64,000 bases of DNA, taken from sequence record NC_048186.1. One strand, written 5' to 3'. This DNA is from Escherichia phage vB_EcoM_KWBSE43-6. Made by a program: the position numbers and the translations under genes. The notes below the pieces were generated by a model that made no database searches, had not been told where the DNA came from, and saw only the letters and a program-made list of their open reading frames with translations. Numbering within the stretch: position 1 is the first letter of the stretch; each line of letters starts with the position of its first letter. Shown here piece after piece: positions 906 to 54,389 of this stretch.

Positions 906-3900
906 ATGGCTAATAAACCCACGAAACCAAATTTTCCGCTTGGGCTTGAATCACAAGATCAATCCGTATTTCAAGAAGGTATTCTGAATAATGGTGTTGT
1001 AGAACATGGCCCAGATGCGGTAATGACTGTGCCAGAAACTCCTGACGCATCTGGGGTTCCTTCTGCTGTCCGTTATAACGAAGATGACGACCAGTTTGAA
1101 GGCTATTACAACGAAGGCGGTTGGTTGCCGCTTGGGGGTGGTAACGGTGGGCGCTGGGAACTCCTTCCGCATGCCCCCTCTTCCTTGTTACAGCTCGGTC
1201 GTGCATATCTGGTGGATAACACTGACGGTGCCTCTACGGTGGTTTTCCCTCCCCCTAAACGGGTTGGTGATAGCATCACTGTGTGTGACCTTTTTGGTAA
1301 ATTCTCAACTTATCCTCTGACTGTTGACGGTAACGGTAAATCGATCTATGGCTCTGCGGATAGCATGACGATTTCTACCGATAACGTCAGCGCGACGTTT
1401 ACGTGGACTGGTGAATCCCGTGGCTGGGTTATTACATCAGGCGTCGGTCTGGGACAAGGCCGGGTTTATAGTCGCGAAATTTACAGCCAAATTCTGTCAG
1501 CGACAACACCATCTATTACCCTGAGCACTCAACCATCTATTGTAGATGTGTATGTTGACGGAAAACGTTTGAAAGAATCCCTGTATACTCTCGACGGGTA
1601 TGAAGTTAAATTCGATCCGGCGCTGGCCTCTGGTTCTGATGTGCAGATTATTCAGTACATCCCAATTCAGCTCGGCGCGGGCGGTGGGGGTTCTGGTGGA
1701 ACTGTAATCACCTGGGAATACAACGGCGGCTCAGCTATCGGCGGAGAAACCCAAATCGTGTTGGATGTGGTCGTGGACTCAGTATCTGAGATCTACATCC
1801 GTGGTTCCCGTCAACAGATAGGGCGCGGGTTCACATTTGATCCTGCCACCAGTACGATTACCTTGGCGGATGAACTGGATGCCGGGGATGACGTTGTCGT
1901 CGTTATCAACGGTGACCCAACGGTCTACAACCAAATAGATCGCACTCCTTGGGAAGTTGCTCGGGCGTTTAACGTCTCAAATAACAGCGTCATTATGAGC
2001 AATGACAGGAATACTACCCTTGACGGGAAAACGATAGTATACGATATTAACAGTCAAAACTCTTGGGAAATTCCTGCTGGTATTCCTGTTGGCGCTAAAA
2101 TATCAAGTGTTTCTTCAGGGATTCTTGTGTACACCCCTGGTAACGTCAGTGTCACATTGACATTGTTGACGACGGGTACTACTGTTCTGAAACGCCTCGC
2201 CAATAGCAATTCTGGTAACGGCGGTGATATGGTTCTTTACAAAGCATCTTCAAATGCTGTGGAAAGAGCTATTTCTATGGCGTTGAAAGATTTTGTAAAC
2301 CTCCATGATTATTATCTGTCTTCTGATAACGGAGATTGGTATCCTGCATTTAACAGGGCTTTCCAAGATTCCCAAAATATTTTAGTTCCTTATGGTTCTC
2401 ATGTTGTCAAAACCACGGTTGTTCCACCATCCAATTCAAAAATAATTGGTCTTGGGGAAGCCAGTATCGTTAAATCACCAGATGCGATTGACGCCGCCGC
2501 CACAAACCTCGTTACCGTGTTTCGGGCTACTGGTTCAGATAATATATTGATTTCTGATATTACAATAGATGGTGGTGTTAACGAAGTCAACACCGCCAAA
2601 TCCTTTACACGAACTGTAAGGTTCATTAATTGTACCAACGTGTCGTTGCTGAGGGTTCGAGTATTAAACAACGCGGATTGGTCGACATCGTTCGAAGGCG
2701 GTCATGACTTTACGGTGAAGAATTATTACCAAAGATCGTATCGTTATCAGAACACTGCTATCAATTTGAATGGTGGACGTGATGGCCTACATTTCATGGA
2801 TTGTTATAATGTGAATGCAGACGGCCTTGACATAGAATCTGGTGATGATTGCGTGGGTATCACCACTACTGGTACAGATCTTGAAAATATCACGATTCGT
2901 AACCTGTGGGGTTCATCCAATATTGCTTCTCTCGTTATTTTTAACGAAGAAAAAGATTCTAACGATGTGTACTATTCAGCTAATGTCACTGGATTGAATA
3001 TTAGTGGTATCAGGATCAAGAAAGGCGGCAACGCTCGAAATATCGTCAGGGTTATAGGATACGGTGCCAACACCCAAATCAAAGATGTTTCAATCTTGGA
3101 TGTAAGGGGAAAAGCCTTTAACTCTTATGGTATTTGGGTGCAAGGTAGCGTTGACCATCCAGTAGACACAGTACACATAAGCAATTCAGACGTTGGTTCA
3201 CAACAGGCCCACGGCGTTCTGTTGCAGAATATAAAACGTTTGTCCGGTAACGTCTATGGTTATTATGAGGGTGTGAATTCTTCCGCTTCATTTGTTGGTG
3301 TGAACATGGTTTCGATCACTGGTGCGATGTTCACTCCAGGTTCTAGAAGTTCTTACGGGTATGGTGTACAAGTTCTGACCAGTAAAGATATCGTGCTGAC
3401 ACCTGATATCGAAAGTTGCGGCGCTGGGTTGTTCAGCTCTGCTTCTGGGGGTAATTTACGAATAGTAAACTGTGATGGTGTAACCATACCTTATGGCCGT
3501 GCCGTCGGGGACGTGGCTGTCAGCTATTGGGGTATCAACTTCGGTGGAAATACAAATTTAGACGTGGGTCTGGAATTCGTGTTTGGTGGGTTTACCAACT
3601 CGTCTCTCCCGAACTCTTATTATTTAAAAGCCCCAGCAGTTGATATCAAATGGAAAGAAGCGTCTGACGGGACTGTGACTATGAGTATCGCTCGTGGCGC
3701 CAGTATAGTCAGAAACAGCCAAGGCAATTTTACAATAACGTTCAACAATGATATGCGCAGTACATTGTTTTCTTGGCAGGCGACCGCCTATCACAATGGC
3801 GCGTTACGTTTAGTTCGTCTTGCTTCTGCTGTGGGGACTAAAACGATGACGATACAAGTAACGGATACGGCAAATGCCGCGACGTTCGCTGATTTTATAG

Positions 3901-4215: not shown

Positions 4216-6795
4216 ATGGCCAGAAACATAGAAGAAATTTTCGGTGGGGTAGTCGTAGCACCACACCAGATCCCGTTCACGTACACTTCAACAAACGGTG
4301 GGGAAACTTTTATATCTCTGCCATTTTATCCCATCACCGGGTTCGTTACTATCAACGGTGGTGTACAGGTCCCTCTTGACAATTTCGAAATAGACGGAAA
4401 CACATTAAATCTTGGTCGAGAACTGGATCCAAGTGATGTTGTGTTCTGTTTGTTCGATAAAATCATGTCACCTCAAGATGCCAGTAACAACGCAGTTCGA
4501 GTTTATAAATTCATCTCTGTTGGAGGAGAAACGGAATTCACTCCAGATTTTACGGCGTATGGTGTCCAATCTCTTTATATCAATGGGAAATACCAAATAG
4601 CTGGTGAGGATTACACATATTCTAAGACAGATGGGAAAGTTTCTTTTACTACCCCATTAGTTACTGGAGTATGGGTTGCAGCTGAGATGAACATAAAGCA
4701 AAATATCCCCGCTTTAGCTGGCAATAATGGCGCATCACAAATCGGAACAGAATCAGGGCAAAATGTTCAATTAGAACTCGATTCATTCCGTAATTTGTTC
4801 GGGGAATATGGGTTTAGCATGATAGGGCAAACCACATATCAAGGATTGAGGAATTATAACGGCAATTCCAATTATATGATGATATATGGTAGATCCTATC
4901 TTCTAGATGGTGGTCATGGTATATTTGATTTAGTTCCTGGCGGTAATGCCATGACAACCCCTGACGATGATTGTGTGCATATTCGAGATACGTTGGGGCG
5001 GTTATGGCGTCGTAGATTTGAAGACAATGTCATAAGAATGAGCTGGGCGGGTGCTAAAAACCAATTAGAAACATCATCACCACAAGATGATGCTTTCAGG
5101 AACTGCCTGCTTGCGGCCAAATCGTTGTCTCCTACTGGTTATCCACAATCAATCATTAAAGGATTAGACCGTGGTGTAGTTTATCTTGCAGAGCGGCATT
5201 ATATCCGTTGTGGTAATTTCCCTGAATATATGGCGTGGAAATTGCCACCTACTGGTGGTGGTGACCGTTTTGGGCTGGATCTGCTGTGTGCATTGGGAGA
5301 AGGGGCGGGGTTCTTTATCGTCCAAGCTAATAACCCATTGTTGCGCGTCCGGGTAGACAACACTGGTATCCCATTCAATGTTTCGAATTATACTGATGCC
5401 CAACTTGTGAGTATAGTTGAGAACAATTATATCTTACGTTTGGAATCAATGGTGAACGCTCCGGAATTCGACGTTCATCCAGGTAATTATCCCGGTACTG
5501 TTCTTTACAGCACGGGTAAAAAGGATTATTCTGCAGTAACTGCACAATGGCCTGATTTGGTCCAAGTCTTACCGTCTATACAGAACGTCGGTAACGCGGT
5601 GTTTAACATAAAAAACTGTGGTCGAGATTTTATGTTAACCAATACTGGGGCTGGGTTGGGTCATTTTCATTCCGTTTGGTCACAAAATAACCGACTCCCT
5701 GGTTATATATCGAACTGCTATGATTTAACGATGACATATGAAGATTATGTCCCACACAACGAAACATCTGGTGGATTGATATTTAGTGAATGTGGCACTC
5801 TTTCTTTAGAAAATATTTTGATTGGCGCAGGTGGGGTAGGACATTTGTGTATATGGGATTGCCGTAACGTCCATATGAACCGTCATATCTCTATATGTGG
5901 TAATACCACTTGGGCTGCATCTAACCAAGTAGATGATCTTTATGCTTTAGAAATTTGTAACTCCGAAGTTCATATGAGCGGCGTGCATGCTCAAAACTCT
6001 GGTAAATTCGCACGTGTAGGATTCAATTCACAATTAACGGTTGATCACCTTACTGCATGGGATGTTTCAAAATTATTCTTGATGACGAATGATTTGACTA
6101 AATTGAAATATCGTGGGCAGCGGCAGGCTGTTACAGGGGACCCGAGCCGGATTTATGTGACATCAGGATTCGCTCAAAACCTTAACGCATCTCAGTTCGG
6201 TTGGGCTTGTGCTCCTGTAATAGAAATCGACAGCACAGTTAACGGTGATTTCAAATTTTATTGGAATTGCTGGACCAATAACGTTCATGCAGGGTATGGA
6301 TCTGAATCTGAAGCAAATCTTGCTATTATTAGCGTGGCTTCTACAAGTTCTACAGGATCTGTGTCATTCGGCGAAGACGCTAAATTGGAAGGTAATACGA
6401 CGAACTACGTCCTTCGTCTTGCAAACAAAAACCAATTGGGGAAAGTGCGCACTCGTCAAACATCTTTCTGTCGTGTACGTTATACCAATGACAACTCACA
6501 GTCATCTTTTGCAATGCGCGAAGCTGCTCATGACAATGGAACTACTGTGATCCCTATTGACGGAACAACATACAGCTATCCGTACCGCAGACCTGCTAAA
6601 TATTTCGTATCTTTAAACGTCCCTGCTGGTGGTGGTTCATGCTCAGTGACATTAAACGGTATGACGATTTTCCAAACTACGGTAGTCGGGACACATGGTA
6701 TAGTTATTGAAATGAAATACCAAGAAACCGTCGTGTTTACGTCATCCAACGTTACTGTATCGAATGCGCAGTGGCGTTATATTTTGGAGGAATAA
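4216..6795 (+). CDS. tail spike protein, 859 aa (TSP2-like), beta-helix
   Basis: ATG 4216 (track start 4189 is TTG inside the hairpin); same upstream architecture and tttcaaATGGC start context as 906 gene; beta-helix-like repeats in C-terminal half. Confidence 0.7.
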   Translation: MARNIEEIFGGVVVAPHQIPFTYTSTNGGETFISLPFYPITGFVTINGGVQVPLDNFEIDGNTLNLGRELDPSDVVFCLFDKIMSPQDASNNAVRVYKFISVGGETEFTPDFTAYGVQSLYINGKYQIAGEDYTYSKTDGKVSFTTPLVTGVWVAAEMNIKQNIPALAGNNGASQIGTESGQNVQLELDSFRNLFGEYGFSMIGQTTYQGLRNYNGNSNYMMIYGRSYLLDGGHGIFDLVPGGNAMTTPDDDCVHIRDTLGRLWRRRFEDNVIRMSWAGAKNQLETSSPQDDAFRNCLLAAKSLSPTGYPQSIIKGLDRGVVYLAERHYIRCGNFPEYMAWKLPPTGGGDRFGLDLLCALGEGAGFFIVQANNPLLRVRVDNTGIPFNVSNYTDAQLVSIVENNYILRLESMVNAPEFDVHPGNYPGTVLYSTGKKDYSAVTAQWPDLVQVLPSIQNVGNAVFNIKNCGRDFMLTNTGAGLGHFHSVWSQNNRLPGYISNCYDLTMTYEDYVPHNETSGGLIFSECGTLSLENILIGAGGVGHLCIWDCRNVHMNRHISICGNTTWAASNQVDDLYALEICNSEVHMSGVHAQNSGKFARVGFNSQLTVDHLTAWDVSKLFLMTNDLTKLKYRGQRQAVTGDPSRIYVTSGFAQNLNASQFGWACAPVIEIDSTVNGDFKFYWNCWTNNVHAGYGSESEANLAIISVASTSSTGSVSFGEDAKLEGNTTNYVLRLANKNQLGKVRTRQTSFCRVRYTNDNSQSSFAMREAAHDNGTTVIPIDGTTYSYPYRRPAKYFVSLNVPAGGGSCSVTLNGMTIFQTTVVGTHGIVIEMKYQETVVFTSSNVTVSNAQWRYILEE

Positions 6796-6797
6796 TA

Positions 6798-7097
6798 ATG
6801 ATTAAAGCAATCAAAGGGGATTTCACTGCTGTAACTTCAGTAGGAGAAATTTCATATCAATACGCTACTGTCCAGACTTTTCGGGGAGATGCAACGAGCG
6901 TGACCGTAGATGTATTTCTTTCCGATCGCTGGATTATCCAACGGGACGGGATCAATGTGGTAGATGATACTGCGCCTGGATTTTTCAAATCTGTACAGTT
7001 TGCTCCTGATTGGCAGAGCAGTTTGAATATCATAGATCAGGCTTATGAATATTTGAAAAGTCTTCCAGAGTTTTCAAATTCTACTGATGTTGTATAA
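6798..7097 (+). CDS. hypothetical protein, 99 aa
   Basis: ATG 6798 with GGAGG 8 nt upstream; overlaps end of preceding tail-spike gene. Confidence 0.5.
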   Translation: MIKAIKGDFTAVTSVGEISYQYATVQTFRGDATSVTVDVFLSDRWIIQRDGINVVDDTAPGFFKSVQFAPDWQSSLNIIDQAYEYLKSLPEFSNSTDVV

Positions 7098-7130
7098 AGT
7101 TAAGGGGGCTAGACCCCCTTAACTTATTTT
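7097..7130. terminator. bidirectional rho-independent terminator
   Basis: 12-bp perfect stem AAGTTAAGGGGG / CCCCCTTAACTT, loop ctaga, T-tract after; A-tract before serves the minus strand. Confidence 0.6.
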
Positions 7131-7372
7131 TCTATTTGTACAACAATCCCGTTTTCTTTTAAAACAGCTTCCAATTGCTCAATATGTAGCCTTAAATTTG
7201 AGTAGACGGTCGCTGCGATCAAAATTTCTTCACTTAATTTAACAGGTGAGTGAAGTGCGTCTATGTTAAAATTTCCTCCTGACGCAATAACTTTTCCATC
7301 TTCGTTAAATGTGTAGATGCAAGGATCTGGTTTATTTTTCTTAATCTTTATCAGTATTTCTTGTTTCCCCAT
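7124..7372 (-). CDS. hypothetical protein, 82 aa, opposite orientation inside tail-spike cluster
   Basis: ATG (minus) at 7370-7372 with GGAGA 9 nt upstream; stop lies in bidirectional terminator. Confidence 0.45.
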   Translation of the reverse strand: MGKQEILIKIKKNKPDPCIYTFNEDGKVIASGGNFNIDALHSPVKLSEEILIAATVYSNLRLHIEQLEAVLKENGIVVQIEK

Positions 7373-7442
7373 GATACATATCTCCAGCTGACTATGATTT
7401 GTACAAACATTGTACCCGAAACCGTTCGTTTGGAATAATACA

Positions 7443-7449
7443 CTAAATA
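7443..7449 (+). promoter_or_regulatory. late-promoter-like box CTAAATA
   Basis: CACTAAATACAAG 39 nt upstream of ATG 7488; same 13-mer context upstream of 9822 gene. Confidence 0.4.
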
Positions 7450-7487
7450 CAAGAATCAAGCCACAGAAAAACAACAGGAGATTCATC

Positions 7488-9491
7488 ATGAATCCGCAAT
7501 TTAGTCAGCCCGGTGGTTCCGTCTCTAAAGACGTGAACAAACAATCTATCGCACGTGTATTCTCTAAGAAAAAGAGTGATATATCATATTTGAAAGTTGG
7601 TTCTAGCGTTAATGGTTATGCTGTGCTATTCGAGCCGACAACCCAAACGTGTTGGTTTAGAGGGACTGCAACAGGTAATACAGTTTCTTGGACTATCAAC
7701 AATGATATCATGACTTTAGTGACTTCGGGTGGTTCCTTCACTCTGAACAAAGCCCAAGTTTGGGATTCTGTTACACTTTCCGGTGGAAATGCGACGAGTT
7801 TGATCGGAACACCTTCTGGTGGAACGTTAGCTAATCTGTTATTACGGACTGTGTCTCCTGCTGAATTCGGATTAGAAAACGATCCAACAGGAGTCAAAGC
7901 AGATAAAAATACCATGGCTGTTCAAAAGGCTATTCGTTACCTGAATTCTTTGGGTGGTGGACGTCTCTTGTTCCCTACTGGGCAATACACATTTTGCTAT
8001 GGAATTTGGTTGTTTGACAACATTCTGATCGATCTGAACGGTAGCATCTGTACTTTCAAAAACGCAACTTTTCCATTACGCAGTCGGGCATGTTTTGTTA
8101 TGGGTTCTTCTTATGAAGTCAACCGTGACAAGGCTATGAGTTTTTATGATGACGGCACCTACATCAACAACCCAAACCCGACCAATACAGCATATGTGAA
8201 TTTGCCGTTGGGAACGTTTTTGCGTGACAATGTCAATAAAGCGGAAATCAAAAACGCGCATATAATGAATGGGCATATCAAAGCCACGTTTGATTCCCCT
8301 ACTGCAAACGGTGCTTATGCAATAAATATGGCAAATGCGATGTATTGCACAGCACATGATTTATTCTTTACTGGATTCACAGAAGCCATAAACATGGGTT
8401 CGGATACTGGTTCTGAAACTCCGTCTTGCCATGGTTGTCTGGCTCATGATCTTTATATCGTTCAGCCTGACCAAAATAAAACTTATTATTCAATTGGTTT
8501 TATTTCAAACTCCACCAACTGTTCCATTCAACGGGCGATACAATATCTGCCTTGCGCCGCCGGGACAGAGAACGGGTCGGGTGTGGCTACTAACGTCGTT
8601 GAAGATTGTATTATAGAGGACATATTCATACCTTCTTTGGGTATTACGCAATCTTCTGAAGGGGTTCTTTTAAACAACGCAAAAGGATGTGTTGTGAGGA
8701 ACATTTGTGTCCGAAACTGTAAAGTGGTGGTGGCTGTTTATTATGTCAGCACCAGCTATATCAGTGCTGACAAATGGAATCATATTTCTGGCATAACTGG
8801 CCAAGGCACAGTTGCATTGATCGCAGTGCGCGGAAAATATACCACATTTACCGGATTCGCTGCGGATTCAACGACGCCGTATGAAATATATTTCGGGACT
8901 ACAAACGGATCTAACAACCGTATTGAACAAGAACCGGCTAGTATGTATTTCACAGAGACATCAACGGTCAAACAATATTGGTATTGCAATAACAACTACA
9001 TCAAAGGATGGGTCGTCAAATATCTGTATTTGCGGCCAATGAATACACTGGTGAATGACAAATCTGTTGCATTCAACTGGAACATGAACAAATCCGTGTC
9101 AGCCAACGATGACACCACGTTGTATTTCTTATGGGAAGTTCCTCCGTCCGTGAAGGCTATAAAGGCGGTCAAACTTTTCGCATATTACAATACCAACGCA
9201 GTGGCTAAAGGAAGTAATATCAAAATAGAAGTTCGTAGGATGATAGCGTTTGATGGTAACGCTAACACGTTGCCGTACATAGAACCTGCCATTGGTGCAA
9301 CTTCTACAGCAACGGTGGATCAACAGAATATAGCCATGAGCGCGGTTCATTCCGATACGGTTAGTCCCGGCATGGTAGTAACTGGCGATACTACGAATGG
9401 CCTGTCGAATAGTGTTGACATTTTGGTTACGTTTGCCAACACGTCCAAAAACTCTTTAATGAAAGAAATGGAAATTACATACCTGGGGTGA
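7488..9491 (+). CDS. tail spike protein, 667 aa, conserved N-terminal anchor module
   Basis: ATG 7488; N-terminus MNPQFSQPGGSVSKDVNKQSIARVF... shared with 9822 gene and resembling Ackermannviridae tail-spike N-termini; beta-helix-like C-terminal region. Confidence 0.75.
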   Translation: MNPQFSQPGGSVSKDVNKQSIARVFSKKKSDISYLKVGSSVNGYAVLFEPTTQTCWFRGTATGNTVSWTINNDIMTLVTSGGSFTLNKAQVWDSVTLSGGNATSLIGTPSGGTLANLLLRTVSPAEFGLENDPTGVKADKNTMAVQKAIRYLNSLGGGRLLFPTGQYTFCYGIWLFDNILIDLNGSICTFKNATFPLRSRACFVMGSSYEVNRDKAMSFYDDGTYINNPNPTNTAYVNLPLGTFLRDNVNKAEIKNAHIMNGHIKATFDSPTANGAYAINMANAMYCTAHDLFFTGFTEAINMGSDTGSETPSCHGCLAHDLYIVQPDQNKTYYSIGFISNSTNCSIQRAIQYLPCAAGTENGSGVATNVVEDCIIEDIFIPSLGITQSSEGVLLNNAKGCVVRNICVRNCKVVVAVYYVSTSYISADKWNHISGITGQGTVALIAVRGKYTTFTGFAADSTTPYEIYFGTTNGSNNRIEQEPASMYFTETSTVKQYWYCNNNYIKGWVVKYLYLRPMNTLVNDKSVAFNWNMNKSVSANDDTTLYFLWEVPPSVKAIKAVKLFAYYNTNAVAKGSNIKIEVRRMIAFDGNANTLPYIEPAIGATSTATVDQQNIAMSAVHSDTVSPGMVVTGDTTNGLSNSVDILVTFANTSKNSLMKEMEITYLG

Positions 9492-47123: not shown

Positions 47124-49160
47124 ATGTCAGATTTTAAACCCTTCGCAGTTGCTGTAAAGAATCAAATCACCGCGATGTCCAGCAATGGCCTGTACATGAC
47201 TTCGGTTGACAAAGACGCCCTGTGGGATCTGTACCTGTCATCTTTCCCGGAAGGCACGAACAACATCTACCGCGAGCGCACTGAGCACGATTGCACCTGC
47301 TGCAAGCAATTCATCCGTAACATCGGCGGCGTCGTATCGATTGACGCTGATCTGAACCTGGTTACTGTGTGGGACAGCGTCAATCTGGGTAACGAATACG
47401 AAGTGGTGGCGGCAGCGCTGGCCAAATATGTCAAGCAGCACAACATCGTCGGCGTTTACTTCAACGATTCAGCTAAGGTGAGCGTAGAAAGCAACCACGA
47501 AATGGGTGAAAACGGTAAAGTCCGCACCTACGACCATTTCCACGCCGTTCTGAACAATAAATTCGTCCTGCGCGGCGAAGATATCGCCTCCACCAAAGGC
47601 GAAATTTCCCAATCCATTGAAGTATTTGAGCGCAGCATGCGTGAGCTGACTATGGAATCGGCTGAAATCGTCCTGGAACTGATCGATCAGAATTCTCTGT
47701 ATCGCGGCGAAGAGCATCGTTCGGCTGTACAAAGTTTTGTGCAGAGCAAAACCGAATACATGAAAATTCGCTCCGATCTGAAACAACTTTGGGCCTGGCG
47801 AACTGGTTGGTTGTCTAAAAACCATAAGCCGTTCGGCATCCGCAATACTGTCATCGGCACCCTGCTGACCGATCTTTCTGACGGCGTTGAAATGGAAAAG
47901 GCGGTGAAATCCTTTGAAACCAAAGTCGCTCCGACCAACTACCGCCGCCCGACTGCCCTGGTCACCAAAGGTATGATCGAAAAGGCGCAGAAAACGGTTG
48001 CCGAACTCGGCCTGACTGAATCTTTGGGTCGCCGCTATGCGAAGTATGAAGACCTGACGATCAACAACGTGCTGTTCGCCGATATCGATGCGCGGAAAGC
48101 TATGGATCCGTTCGATCAATTGGCGCAGGAAGTCAAAGTGACTGAAAAGTCGCTGGGTAAAATTGAAGAGATCAGCGTCGATGATTTCATCAAAAACGTT
48201 ATCCCGAAAGCGCGTTCCATGGAAGTGATGTTTGAAGGACGTCATACCGCCAACCTGATGTCTCTGGTCGCACCGGAAACTCAAGGCGCTCCGAACCTGT
48301 TCAAATGGGGTAATAATTTCTCCTGGTCCTACAACGGTGAAGTTGCTGATTCCATCAAAGAGCGCGTGAAAGCCGCTGGTGGTAACGTTGATTCATTCCT
48401 GCGCATTTCGCTGGCCTGGTTCAACAATGACGACCTGGACCTGCACATGTACACTCCGACGAACGAACACATTTATTTCTCTCGCGGTTGCCGCCGTTCT
48501 TACCATACTGGTGGTGAGTTGGATATTGACATGAACGGTATGGATGGGATCAACAAAGAGCGTAAACCGGTTGAGAACATCTTCTTCAAAGACAAGAACA
48601 TGCTGCGTGATGGCGTGTACCGTTTCATCGTCGACAACTATGCCCAGCGTGAAACCATCGACACCGGGTTCATCGTTGAGGTGGAATATGAAGGCGACCT
48701 GAAACGTTTCTCCTGTGAAAAAGGTCTGAAGAATAAACAGCAGATGACCGTCATTGAACTGCGCGTCAAAGACAAAAAGGTTGTTGAAATTCAGTCTTCC
48801 CTGGTGCCGACAACTGGCGTGGAAACTGAAATTTGGGGTATCCGTACCCAGAATTTCCAGAAGGTGCAACTGGTCCTGAATTCTCCTAACCACTGGGACG
48901 GTGAACAGACCGGAAACCGACATCTGTTCTTTATCCTGGAAGGTTGTATCAACCCGGCCAGCACTCGCGGCTTCTACAATGAATATCTGAAGCCGGAATT
49001 GGCACCGCATGGCAAGGTTTTTGAAATGTTGGGCGCTAAAATGAGAGCAGAACCGAGTGATAAGCAACTCAGCGGCCTGGGCTTCTCTTCCACTCAGCGC
49101 AATTATGTCCTGGTGAAGGTAAGCGGTTCATTTAATCGTGTAGTCAAAGTCGTTTTTTAA
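47124..49160 (+). CDS. hypothetical protein, 678 aa
   Basis: Long ORF with good start context; HDCTCCKQF cysteine cluster near N-terminus; no Walker motifs. Confidence 0.6.
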   Translation: MSDFKPFAVAVKNQITAMSSNGLYMTSVDKDALWDLYLSSFPEGTNNIYRERTEHDCTCCKQFIRNIGGVVSIDADLNLVTVWDSVNLGNEYEVVAAALAKYVKQHNIVGVYFNDSAKVSVESNHEMGENGKVRTYDHFHAVLNNKFVLRGEDIASTKGEISQSIEVFERSMRELTMESAEIVLELIDQNSLYRGEEHRSAVQSFVQSKTEYMKIRSDLKQLWAWRTGWLSKNHKPFGIRNTVIGTLLTDLSDGVEMEKAVKSFETKVAPTNYRRPTALVTKGMIEKAQKTVAELGLTESLGRRYAKYEDLTINNVLFADIDARKAMDPFDQLAQEVKVTEKSLGKIEEISVDDFIKNVIPKARSMEVMFEGRHTANLMSLVAPETQGAPNLFKWGNNFSWSYNGEVADSIKERVKAAGGNVDSFLRISLAWFNNDDLDLHMYTPTNEHIYFSRGCRRSYHTGGELDIDMNGMDGINKERKPVENIFFKDKNMLRDGVYRFIVDNYAQRETIDTGFIVEVEYEGDLKRFSCEKGLKNKQQMTVIELRVKDKKVVEIQSSLVPTTGVETEIWGIRTQNFQKVQLVLNSPNHWDGEQTGNRHLFFILEGCINPASTRGFYNEYLKPELAPHGKVFEMLGAKMRAEPSDKQLSGLGFSSTQRNYVLVKVSGSFNRVVKVVF

Positions 49161-49568: not shown

Positions 49569-49593
49569 ATCCGCTGCCTTTGGCGCGATAATG

Positions 49594-49620
49594 AACCCCG
49601 CCATGTGCGGGGTTTGTTGT
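49594..49620 (+). terminator. rho-independent terminator (same hairpin as 31785)
   Basis: ACCCCGCCATGTGCGGGGTTT identical to 31786-31806. Confidence 0.6.
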
Positions 49621-49694
49621 ATCCATCAGCAATAAAGCCTCATTCAATATACGTGGGCATATAATATCCTAGTGTTAAACAGTGGAGAAGATTT

Positions 49695-50058: not shown

Positions 50059-50202
50059 ATGGATTCCTGTCTATTAGATCCCGAGAACGTTCTTGTGGTT
50101 GAAATTGAAAACAACAAGCCGTTCATTTTGAAAATGTTGGAGAAGGATAATAATCCTGAAACCAATCCTAAACTATCCCAAAAGGGGAATAACGATGATT
50201 GA
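50059..50202 (+). CDS. small protein, 47 aa
   Basis: ATG 50059 after GAGG; not in ORF track; overlaps next gene start. Confidence 0.3.
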   Translation: MDSCLLDPENVLVVEIENNKPFILKMLEKDNNPETNPKLSQKGNNDD

Positions 50203-52448
50203 ATCATTAGAATTTAAGAATGCCACACAGACGGTCGCTCCTTCCAATCACGTCATCGTCGTTGACATTTCTTATTCCATGTGTTATGCGCTGCCGAAAC
50301 TGCGCCAGCACCTGAAAGAAAACCTGCCCTCCCTGGTTAAGCCGGAAGACACCGTCAGTATTCTGTACTTCTCTTCTCGTGGCGACTTCGGTACTGTGTT
50401 CGCTGGGCGCCAGGTCACCAACGCATCTGACCTGAGTGAGCTGGGTAAACTGATCGATCGCTTCCTGCAACCAACTGGCTGCACCGGATTTGTTGAGCCG
50501 CTCAAGCTGGCTATCGAAACCGCCAACGATCTGAAAAAGTCCGGCGTCATCAATTCCCTGGTGTTCATGACCGACGGTTATGACAACTGCTGGCGTTCCA
50601 GTGAAATTCTCGCGGTCGCAGAGCAGCTGCCAAAGGCGTACGACAACATCACGCTGATCGAATACGGCTGGAACTGCAACCGGGAACTGCTGCAGAAAAT
50701 GGCAGAGTGCTCTGGTGCCACCCATGTATTCGCCGAAGGCCAGGAAGAATATCAGATCGAACTGGAAACAGCGATGGTTTCTGTCGCTCCGCGCGTTCGC
50801 GTTGATTTCAGTATCATCTATTCCTATGCCGTTTATATCGAAAACGGGATTCCGACCATCCTGGCCGCCCAGTCTGATGAAGACCATCCTATCAATTACG
50901 TCAACATCCCTGAGAGCGTCTCTAAGCTGTGGGTTGTTGATCCTGATATGATCGACCAACTGGATAACCTGGCGGACGTTGAAGCGGCATATGTGCTGGC
51001 TCTCTTTGGCGTGCATACTATGGATGCCGACCTGGTGTGGGCCGCGCTGAAAAAGACTGGCGATGTGCGCTTCATTAAACAGTACACCAACTGCTTCACC
51101 AAGCAGGATTATTCCAACATCAAAACTGACATCACAGCAGCGATTGTAGACCCGGCGCTGCGCGGTGTGGACGGTATCGATTACAATCTGGTGCCGCCGG
51201 AAGACGCAACTACTGTTGTTGATGTTCTGACTTACCTGGCGGGAGCAGATGCACAACTGGTTGTTGACCATCCCCTGTTCTCTTACAAGCGGATCGGTCG
51301 CGGTACGGTACAAAAAGCCGACGATACCGAAGACAAGCTGGCGGCAGAAATTGCCGAAGCCAAATCTAAAGAAGAGCGTAAAGCGCTGGCCCTGAAACTG
51401 GCTGAGCACGAAGACTGGACTCCTGTGTTTGAGCCGGTGAAAGGCGCGGGCGTTCCCATCAGCAATCTGGTTTACAACTCGGCCCGCCCGAACATCAGTC
51501 TGCAGACTGTGCAAAACGGGACCGTCATCATCCCGAAGTTCGCACAAAAGAAATACGATCTGCCTGAATCTATTGATACGTGGCAGTGGAAGAACTACAC
51601 CAAAGAAATACGATCTGCCTGAATCTATTGATACGTGGCAGTGGAAGAACTACACCATCGTCAAAGACGGTATCATCCATATGAAGACCCTTCCTGTGGT
51701 CTGCTCGGTGGAAACCGTATCTGAACTGGTTAGCAAAGGCGTTGAAGTTTACGGCGGGCCGGAAGTGTTCATCGTAAATCTGGGCAGCGTTCCTCTGGTT
51801 AACCGCGCGATGGTTAAGAACATCAGCGCCGCGCAGTTCTTTGCTGACCACGTCCGTCTGGAATCCCTGAAAGCCAAGCAGAAGGTTCTCAAATATTTCC
51901 GTGACGAACTGGTTGGGAAAGGTAATGCCGTGGGCCTGGCAGGCAAATACGGCTTTGAAGCGGCTGAGTTTTTGTCTGCGAATGGCATCCGCGATTACGG
52001 CTTCTCTCCGAAGACCGCTTCGGTTGAGTCTACTGATTTCTACATGAGCCGCGAACTCAATGTGAAGATCAAAGGCGCTTCCTCGCTGCCGTCAATTGCC
52101 GCCGTTCTGAAGAAACAGGCCGACAACAAAAAACTGAACGCAGCTGATCAGCTGATCGCTAATGCGCTGGCAGAATACAACGCCTTTGTCAAATCTCCGG
52201 CGGTGACTGCAGTTCCGGAAGCAACGCAGGCCAAGATCATTGAATCTTGGATCAGTGATGCTGCCAAGGCTGCTATCACCCAAGTCCGTGAGCTGAACAA
52301 GACCCTGTCCAAATCTCTGTATGCCATCGTTGCAGGCCATGGCTGGTTCACCGACCTGGATCTGGAAGAGTCCACCATGGAAGTGGAAGTTGATGGCGTC
52401 AAATACACCGTCAGTGCAGTCCTGGAAGAGAAAGAGATCAAAATCTAA
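50195..52448 (+). pseudogene. vWA-domain protein gene split into two ORFs (50195-51622, 51573-52448) by a 55-bp tandem duplication
   Basis: N-terminal vWA/MIDAS motifs (VVVDISYSM, FMTDG); removing one repeat copy restores a single ORF of about 732 aa with KKYDLPESIDTWQWKNYT read once. Confidence 0.6.
51547..51656. repeat. perfect 55-bp direct tandem duplication (2 copies)
   Basis: AAAGAAATACGATCTGCCTGAATCTATTGATACGTGGCAGTGGAAGAACTACACC at 51547-51601 and 51602-51656; 55 is not a multiple of 3. Confidence 0.9.
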
Positions 52449-52492: not shown

Positions 52493-52816
52493 ATGTCTAA
52501 GAATGTGTCTTATATCGATGTCATGCGCTTCCTTGTCCAGTATGCAAGTGACAATCTGAATATGGAACTGTGGCGTGAGAAGAAACACTCCGTAACAATA
52601 CAATCCGCGATTGACAAAATCGAAGATCAGCTGGAATCCCTGGCTCCTCTGCGCGTCAAAGAACATCTGGGTGGCGATGAACTTGACGCGATAGAGATCA
52701 TCATGGACCTGGAAGAAGAATATGATGTAGAGATCACGGATTATTGGGTCGGTTCTCATAAAGACGACCCAACCCTGGGTGAATTGGCAGAGCATGTGGT
52801 GCATCTTTTAAAATAA
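52493..52816 (+). CDS. acyl carrier protein-like protein lacking the phosphopantetheine-attachment serine, 107 aa
   Basis: EHLGGDELDAIEIIMDLEEEYDVEITD aligns with ACP [26 protein letters not shown]; canonical DSL is DEL. Confidence 0.65.
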   Translation: MSKNVSYIDVMRFLVQYASDNLNMELWREKKHSVTIQSAIDKIEDQLESLAPLRVKEHLGGDELDAIEIIMDLEEEYDVEITDYWVGSHKDDPTLGELAEHVVHLLK

Positions 52817-52909: not shown

Positions 52910-53155
52910 ATGGAACAACTACTCCCCGAATCCGTATGCACATACGTGCGCCTCGCAGGTGAAGGCCACGATGTAGCAACTCAACTTACCGACCTCATTC
53001 TGAGCTACGGTATCAAGAAAGTTAATTCCGTTGACAACTCTGGTGTGAAAGGCGACTATATCGTTCTGAACCACCGCGGTCTGAAGACCAATCCGGTATT
53101 TTTCGTCGGCGTTCATAAGAAAGATGGCCAGGAAGTCGTGGAGATCGTATCGTGA
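52910..53155 (+). CDS. hypothetical protein, 81 aa
   Basis: ATG 52910 after GAAGAAGG and hairpin GGGCGGG...CCCGCC. Confidence 0.5.
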   Translation: MEQLLPESVCTYVRLAGEGHDVATQLTDLILSYGIKKVNSVDNSGVKGDYIVLNHRGLKTNPVFFVGVHKKDGQEVVEIVS

Positions 53156-53414: not shown

Positions 53415-53447
53415 TGCCCCGTCTATTTGAAATGCAGGAACTATACC

Positions 53448-53918
53448 ATGACCCGTATTAATGTCATTCCCGTTGAATCTCTGTGTGATCAGCATTTGCT
53501 CGCTGAATATACCGAACTGGCGCCTGTTGTCCTTAATGTTGTGAATGGAAAACGTCGCAATCTCAAAGGCGCTCCAAAACATTACAAACTCAACGAAGGT
53601 CATGTGTTATTTTTCCGGGACAAACTGATTTATCTGATTGAGCGCTATGACCAACTTGTCACTGAACTGATATCTCGCGGGTATACCGTGAATTATCCTT
53701 CTCTTCGAAATCAGATAACTCATGAGAACAAACAGGAACTCCGGATTTATCTAAATGATTATCAACCGACTCAAGCTGCAGTCCAAGAAAATGTGGAACG
53801 CATAGTCGAAAGGTTGAAGGGTATGGGCAAAATAACGTATAACAGAAAGCCCGTAGATCCTTCTTATATGGTTGGCGTCATGAAACAGAATTTCGAATTT
53901 GGTGAGGTGGCATTATGA
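53448..53918 (+). CDS. denV: endonuclease V (pyrimidine dimer DNA glycosylase) DenV
   Basis: MTRINVIPVESLCDQHLLAEYTELAPV...GHVLFFRDKL matches T4 DenV N-terminus. Confidence 0.8.
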   Translation: MTRINVIPVESLCDQHLLAEYTELAPVVLNVVNGKRRNLKGAPKHYKLNEGHVLFFRDKLIYLIERYDQLVTELISRGYTVNYPSLRNQITHENKQELRIYLNDYQPTQAAVQENVERIVERLKGMGKITYNRKPVDPSYMVGVMKQNFEFGEVAL

Positions 53919-54223
53919 CAGATTTTATAGTCCCTCCAGCCTCATTCCTTCGCGTGAAAAATGAAGTGAAGGAAATCACGGGCTGTACTCACAAAGAATC
54001 TACGACTATCACCATGATGCTGGAAGCAAAAATGTTGGTAGATTCAGAGGATACAAAAGCGGCACTGAATTCTCTGTTGGCTCTTATTATCCGAGCGTAC
54101 CGAATCCCTGCTATTTCAGATGCGGACGATTTGGTTAAACTCCTCAACACTGGAGGGAAAGAATATGATTCCCTCCGCATCTTTATGACCGGTATACAAG
54201 AAGGTGGTTGGTATGAATCTTAA
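53915..54223 (+). CDS. hypothetical protein, 102 aa
   Basis: ATGA overlap with denV stop. Confidence 0.5.
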   Translation: MTDFIVPPASFLRVKNEVKEITGCTHKESTTITMMLEAKMLVDSEDTKAALNSLLALIIRAYRIPAISDADDLVKLLNTGGKEYDSLRIFMTGIQEGGWYES

Positions 54224-54389
54224 TTGGGAATTAATGGGTTGGATCCTTTGCTCCATTTTTGGCGTATTGGGTATTCTGTGGATTATTGTTGGTATCTGGT
54301 TCTATCGGGTTATTACACAATATGAAGCGCGTAAAGCGGAGCGCCAGGTACGCCAGGAAGAAATTCGCAATCGCCGGGAGAACTGGTGA
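54213..54389 (+). CDS. small membrane protein, 58 aa
   Basis: ATG 54213; hydrophobic helix WILCSIFGVLGILWIIVGIWFY then basic tail. Confidence 0.4.
   Translation: MNLNWELMGWILCSIFGVLGILWIIVGIWFYRVITQYEARKAERQVRQEEIRNRRENW

Follow-up and report, generated by a model that had tools for sequence, protein, structure and literature searches.

Introduction

Tandem duplications, and their instability, are well known from the genetics of phage T4. Duplication by slippage or through microhomology usually leaves a few shared bases at the borders, which is a typical feature and not a strict requirement. Repeats may also originate during genome assembly. Contigs derived from a cyclic de Bruijn graph carry a k-base overlap at their ends (Philipson et al.), and the 127-bp version of this terminal k-mer overlap has been described as an artefact for removal (PMC5923482). 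The k-length overlap is an already known kind of error.

Escherichia phage vB_EcoM_KWBSE43-6 (MK373783; 158,607 bp) is a Taipeivirus of the family Ackermannviridae. It was isolated in June 2017, alone among the phages of its source study to date from that year (Korf et al., PMC6563267). No other Taipeivirus has been isolated on E. coli, and KWBSE43-6 lyses a single strain. Taipeiviruses are reported to be circularly permuted or headful. The window analysed here is a stretch of 64,000 nucleotides of this phage (NC_048186.1), in which an initial annotation had described a frame-breaking tandem duplication of 55 bp.

The duplication in the deposited sequence

The following features of the window are referred to below.

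50195–52448, plus strand: vWA/MIDAS gene of 732 aa (PHROG 2426 match), its open reading frame restored when 55 bp are removed
50195–51622, plus strand: ORF1, 475 aa, exact match to QBQ79028.1 / YP_009822569.1 (gp155)
51683–52448, plus strand: ORF2 as annotated, 255 aa, ATG at 51683, exact match to QBQ79029.1 / YP_009822570.1 (gp154)
51547–51601, plus strand: copy 1 of the 55-bp unit, equal to 51602–51656 and of the same length as the SPAdes k stated in the source paper
51602–51656, plus strand: copy 2 of the 55-bp unit, which is single-copy in all 43 relatives spanning the site

Base-for-base comparison and TRF (period 55, 2.1 copies) both recovered the array as it had been described, with positions 51547–51601 identical to 51602–51656 and the two 55-nt copies lying head to tail without a mismatch. 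The identity of the two 55-mers extends by a single nucleotide, the A at 51657, and the junction microhomology is just this 1 nt. The unit opens with AAAGAAATACG and closes with GAACTACACC, while the array is flanked by GTTCGCACA on the left and ATCGTC on the right. It was the sole long perfect tandem repeat across the 64-kb window, and a scan of 31 related loci (676 kb) revealed no perfect tandem duplication with a period of 21–300. An origin of the perfect adjacent 55-nt copies by chance is excluded.

The consequences for the gene were also as first described. ORF1 corresponds to the N-terminal vWA/MIDAS portion, shortened by the frameshift; it was said to stop 21 nt into copy 2, and the last base of its stop codon (...KNYTKEIRSA*) is indeed the 21st of that copy. 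ORF2 is the C-terminal portion of the same gene. Its frame, which differs from that of ORF1, is open from 51573, upstream of the annotated start, and reads the same peptide, KKYDLPESIDTWQWKNYTIVKDG, from copy 2 onward to 52448. Deleting either copy restores the gene, and the single ORF, estimated earlier at about 732 aa, has a computed length of 732 aa. An exact look-up of ORF1 recorded no encoding contig. The restored 732-aa protein was absent from a collection of 15 billion proteins, indicating that the collection holds no independent assembly of vB_EcoM_KWBSE43-6.

Copy number and gene integrity in related phages

The nearest relatives were the Klebsiella phages UPM 2146, 0507-KN2-1, Menlow and Magnus, with ~97% DNA identity over the gene. 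Comparison with related genomes, proposed in the initial annotation as a check, showed one copy in all of them: a 241-bp query over the site matched ~186 bp (241 minus 55) in 43 of the 43 relatives that span it, and the alignment contained a clean 55-nt gap. The junction 34-mer had no match in IMG/VR. It had also been suggested that a two-ORF layout might be conserved in relatives without any repeat, which would speak against a duplication. Instead, a single unbroken ORF without the repeat was found in the relatives, and in UPM 2146 and 0507-KN2-1 the vWA gene is one CDS of 2,199 bp.

Conservation of the intact gene extended well beyond these phages. A tblastn search located the gene in 464 phage records, of which 460 have 80% or more of it in one place. 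Among the records listed, it was unbroken in 58 of 60, the exceptions being Klebsiella phage vB_Ko_K5lambda5 and an N-gapped draft. The record of Klebsiella phage KFM-TASP06 (PV588648.1) was considered as a third disruption of the gene and rejected, as two 100-N gaps (2177–2276 and 2753–2852 of its retrieved locus) and junk contig ends mark it as a scaffold. The piece between the gaps was only 88.7% identical to the window, and a draft or chimeric scaffold is a likelier account of this record than a disruption of biological origin.

These comparisons bear on the suggestion that the repeat is a phase-variable on/off switch operated by slippage, or a recoding site at which ribosomal frameshifting joins the two ORFs. 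The bare existence of a frame-breaking direct repeat speaks for this reading and nothing else does, and we regard it as hardly credible. Neither the repeat nor the two-ORF layout occurs at the site in the relatives, and instead of a simple-sequence tract, the unit consists of 55 nt of unique, ordinary coding sequence. Neither a hairpin, a notable repeat nor a composition anomaly was found at the site, and no minority two-copy alleles were present among the 40 members examined of a 96-member protein cluster at 90% identity.

Other differences from the relatives were observed in the same region. About 3.4 kb of the Menlow locus (5993–9445, between genes for proteins of 123 and 118 aa) is missing from the window at ~49573–49642; the K5lambda5 counterpart of this stretch contains an annotated nicotinamide phosphoribosyltransferase gene and a 756-bp gene. 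For segments 52912–53153 and 53439–54350, blastn gave no counterpart in the locus of either Menlow or May, and these segments look like a mosaic replacement of small genes just 3' of the acyl carrier protein gene.

The vWA/MIDAS protein family

The restored protein matched PHROG 2426 end to end (residues 1–732 of 736). In a family alignment of 28 sequences, with 28–95% identity to the first of them, the MIDAS residues D24-x-S26-x-S28, T97 and D127 were invariant, and the family profile matched the vWA domains (PDB) of ITIH1 (E = 2e-4) and TRAP (E = 6e-3) over residues 9–220. The vWA/MIDAS motifs initially noted at the N-terminus are thereby substantiated. The window protein alone gave a sub-threshold match to Pfam VWA_2 (16.5 bits, E = 0.013; cutoff 27), and many homologues have precomputed matches to PF00092 (VWA), PF13519 (VWA_2) or PF13768 (VWA_3). 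The C-terminal ~500 residues had no match to any known family. N467, D473 and G474, located at or just past the duplication site, were invariant family-wide, which implies that the C-terminal half is under constraint; given this constraint, a truncated form of the gene would be an oddity. A further 118 homologues (27–99% identity) were nearly all about 670–810 aa in length. The real feature of the locus is almost certainly an intact, conserved gene for a 732-aa vWA/MIDAS protein.

The family reaches beyond the Ackermannviridae, with full-length homologues of ~47% identity in RB43/KP15-like T4-type phages; the RB43-like carriers were IMG/VR copies with genomes of 174–180 kb. More distant homologues were found in Vibrio, Shewanella and Rhizobium phages. 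Directly 3' of the vWA gene, at 52493–52816 on the plus strand, lies a gene for an acyl carrier protein (PP-binding PF00550, PHROG 4154), a pairing that is kept in the relatives.

A genuine tandem duplication that arose very recently in the stock used for sequencing, and that knocks out the vWA gene or splits it into two polypeptides, is the reading that takes the deposited sequence at face value. Such a mutation could have become fixed through a plaque-purification bottleneck or through selection on an unusual E. coli host, and unusual selection is conceivable for the sole E. coli Taipeivirus, with one strain lysed. We consider this explanation very unlikely. Nearly all of the 464 records carry a full-length gene, the site includes residues that never vary in the family, and the junction offers little of the microhomology expected of such events (1 nt here, and none in the parallel case described below). 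Moreover, a 55-bp perfect direct repeat would recombine away quickly under T4-like replication.

Assembly history and origin of the repeat

The source paper used both PacBio and Illumina sequencing, without a list of platforms by phage, and assembled the Illumina data with "SPAdes 3.12.0 ... (55kmer)" (Korf et al., PMC6563267). One contig was reported per phage, and where no genome ends could be detected, the sequence was re-arranged to agree with relatives already published. KWBSE43-6 was listed without a terminal repeat, at 51x coverage. The repeat length of 55 bp is the stated SPAdes k of 55, and documentary evidence indicates a circular assembly followed by contig rotation. We infer that KWBSE43-6 was assembled by the Illumina/SPAdes route, with a join at 51547–51656; its isolation in June 2017 and its 51x coverage bear on that route as circumstantial evidence.

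Based on these observations, the 55-bp duplication is very probably an assembly artefact and absent from the phage DNA itself. The initial annotation had left three readings side by side, namely a recent inactivating duplication, an on/off switch and an assembly artefact. Only the last is upheld, on the grounds of the match to k, a re-linearised genome without ends, the lack of the duplication in any relative, and the parallel in K5lambda5.

The artefact probably arose as follows. A circularly permuted phage genome would form a cycle in the SPAdes de Bruijn graph, and SPAdes would write this cycle as a linear contig with its first k bases repeated as its last k. If the authors rotated the contig to match the relatives by joining its ends, and the k-base overlap was left untrimmed, the old contig ends would become an internal, perfect, directly adjacent k-bp repeat. 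Copy 1 would then derive from an end of the contig as SPAdes first wrote it, copy 2 would be the redundant k-mer overlap, and that contig would begin and end with the 55-mer AAAGAAATACGATCTGCCTGAATCTATTGATACGTGGCAGTGGAAGAACTACACC (or its reverse complement), reading AAAGAAATACG...CTACACC. A k of 55, not being a multiple of 3, would break the frame in any gene hit, and the conserved 732-aa vWA/MIDAS gene would thereby have come to be annotated as two CDSs. Junction microhomology of 1 nt, or of 0 nt as in K5lambda5, is what would be expected of arbitrary contig ends.

A different technical error, such as a manual contig join, an error in polishing or scaffolding, or a wrongly resolved graph loop that has nothing to do with circularisation, might also have introduced 55 bp. 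The documented SPAdes k of 55 applies equally to it, and any two de Bruijn contigs joined at a common terminal k-mer would look alike. However, a single contig per phage was reported in the source paper, and we judge such an error to be extremely improbable; in practice it is indistinguishable from an untrimmed circular contig, and either origin is non-biological.

Three other genomes from the same study were scanned, and the 55-bp duplication was absent from D5505 (first 50 kb), MM01 and PTXU06 (first 42.3 kb of 45.9 kb). These scans are uninformative, because the platform is not stated for each phage and trimming may have varied, and the three genomes do not demonstrate a k-length duplication as a pipeline-wide signature. 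In Table S4 of PMC6563267 the size of D5505 is given as 168,409 bp, versus 168,049 bp in GenBank, and that of PTXU06 as 42,321 bp versus 45,904 bp, which suggests clerical errors in that table.

A parallel case in Klebsiella phage vB_Ko_K5lambda5

Klebsiella phage vB_Ko_K5lambda5 (OY978873.1) was found to contain a perfect 77-bp tandem duplication at positions 2983–3136 of the retrieved locus. The duplication breaks the frame of the orthologous vWA gene, leaving two annotated CDSs, at a site 76 bp downstream of that in KWBSE43-6, and the junction microhomology is 0 nt. The genome was assembled with SPAdes 3.13.0 in careful mode, with k = 21, 33, 55, 77 and 127 (PMC11448410). Its size is 160,719 bp both in the record and in the supplementary table of 2024, and 160,642 bp, exactly 77 fewer, in Table 1 of a 2025 paper from the same laboratory (PMC12654880). 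Between the same two tables, phage K7PH164C4 went from 113,206 to 113,079 bp and thus became shorter by exactly 127. Later trimming of k-mer overlaps by this laboratory would account for these changes most simply. The one further disruption of this type in the vWA gene is therefore likewise of k length, and the later published size is without it.

This second case cuts both ways for a genuine duplication. A further out-of-frame duplication in the same gene, 76 bp away, might be taken in its favor, but its length would then have to coincide with an assembler k twice (55 and 77), and the laboratory of K5lambda5 itself later gave a genome 77 bp shorter. For the artefact reading, what is shown directly is a repeat of 55 bp, the k and the re-arrangement policy given in the source paper, one copy in every relative that spans the site, and the parallel in K5lambda5.

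Proximity of the two break-points

In coordinates of the restored gene, the 55-mer of KWBSE43-6 occupies nt 1353–1407 and the 77-mer of K5lambda5 nt 1483–1559. One further feature of the window lies between them.

51657–51731, plus strand: 75-nt segment between the overlaps (restored-gene nt 1408–1482), with the KWBSE43-6 55-mer on its left and the position of the K5lambda5 77-mer on its right

Read as contig ends, these overlaps mean that two independent assemblies opened a ~160-kb circle within 152 bp of each other. The chance of such proximity is ~0.2% per pair, or perhaps 1–4% allowing for how the second case was found. Pure chance thus explains the co-located openings poorly, which hints at something local. 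The overlaps flank 51657–51731 exactly as if they were the two vertices, left and right, that bound a single branch of an assembly graph.

No local cause emerged from the searches made. Neither exact repeats of at least 13 nt elsewhere in the 64-kb window nor homology of the site to E. coli genomes was found, and no fixed genome terminus near the vWA gene has been reported for Taipeiviruses. Contig ends near the gene were absent from 31 IMG/VR loci, and no further breaks occurred across the 101-aa segment spanning the site among the 464 records. A diversity-generating or hypervariable target was also considered and rejected, as close homologues vary at just two residues of the segment (487 and 490).

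Two readings would give the proximity a biological basis, namely that both duplications are real, or that both are artefacts prompted by a real local feature at 51657–51731; taken together, we hold these to be highly improbable. If the former were true, two isolates, KWBSE43-6 on E. coli and K5lambda5 on K. oxytoca, would have independently gained out-of-frame duplications within 152 bp of each other, in a gene conserved almost everywhere else, and propagation would repeatedly have selected for a reversible knock-out. In the weaker version, a minority variant or branch over 51657–51731 would cause both circles to be opened at this place during assembly.

Implications for sequence records

As an assembly artefact, the duplication is biologically of little weight, and the phage almost certainly carries an ordinary intact gene. 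For the databases, MK373783 and its RefSeq copy probably contain 55 surplus bases, the true length being about 158,552 bp, and the truncated proteins YP_009822569.1 and YP_009822570.1 have already spread to UniProt. OY978873.1 carries the same kind of error, of 77 bp. We propose a filter for phage and plasmid records, by which any perfect two-copy tandem of exactly 21, 33, 55, 77, 99 or 127 bp is presumed to be an assembler overlap, pending read evidence.

Two further annotation questions were noted in the window. A 678-aa ORF (47124–49160, plus strand) matched PHROG 1735 end to end and also matched separate fragment PHROGs (residues 1–89, 1–172 and 203–678), which implies that its gene is annotated in pieces in other phage genomes; these pieces could be similar frameshift errors or real splits. 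Within this ORF, ARAGORN called a 91-nt tRNA-Thr(GGT) at 47534–47624 on the minus strand, which is probably a false positive.

Comparison with known systems

The repeat in KWBSE43-6 resembles genuine slipped-strand duplications, such as those of T4, in its head-to-tail order, its effect on the reading frame and its potential to be reversed by recombination. However, genuine duplications usually have border repeats, arbitrary lengths and a mixed population, whereas the borders here share 1 nt and the length equals k. The gene itself is comparable to known vWA/MIDAS proteins, to which the family is linked by the invariant DxSxS...T...D residues and by the profile matches to ITIH1 and TRAP in its N-terminal ~220 residues, and from which the window protein differs in a C-terminal part of ~500 residues that matches no known family.

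The SPAdes circular-contig overlap shares with the KWBSE43-6 repeat its perfect, adjacent, two-copy form, a length equal to the final k of 55, and a re-linearised circle. It differs in that the overlap normally occupies both termini of a deposited record, whereas this copy is internal, lies in a gene and mimics a frameshift mutation; the k of 55 is also unlike the more familiar value of 127. K5lambda5 offers a further likeness, with the same gene affected by a perfect, out-of-frame duplication whose length is a listed SPAdes k, and with the CDS split in the same manner. The two cases differ in phage, laboratory, k and position, and K5lambda5 adds evidence of its own in a later genome size that is 77 bp smaller.
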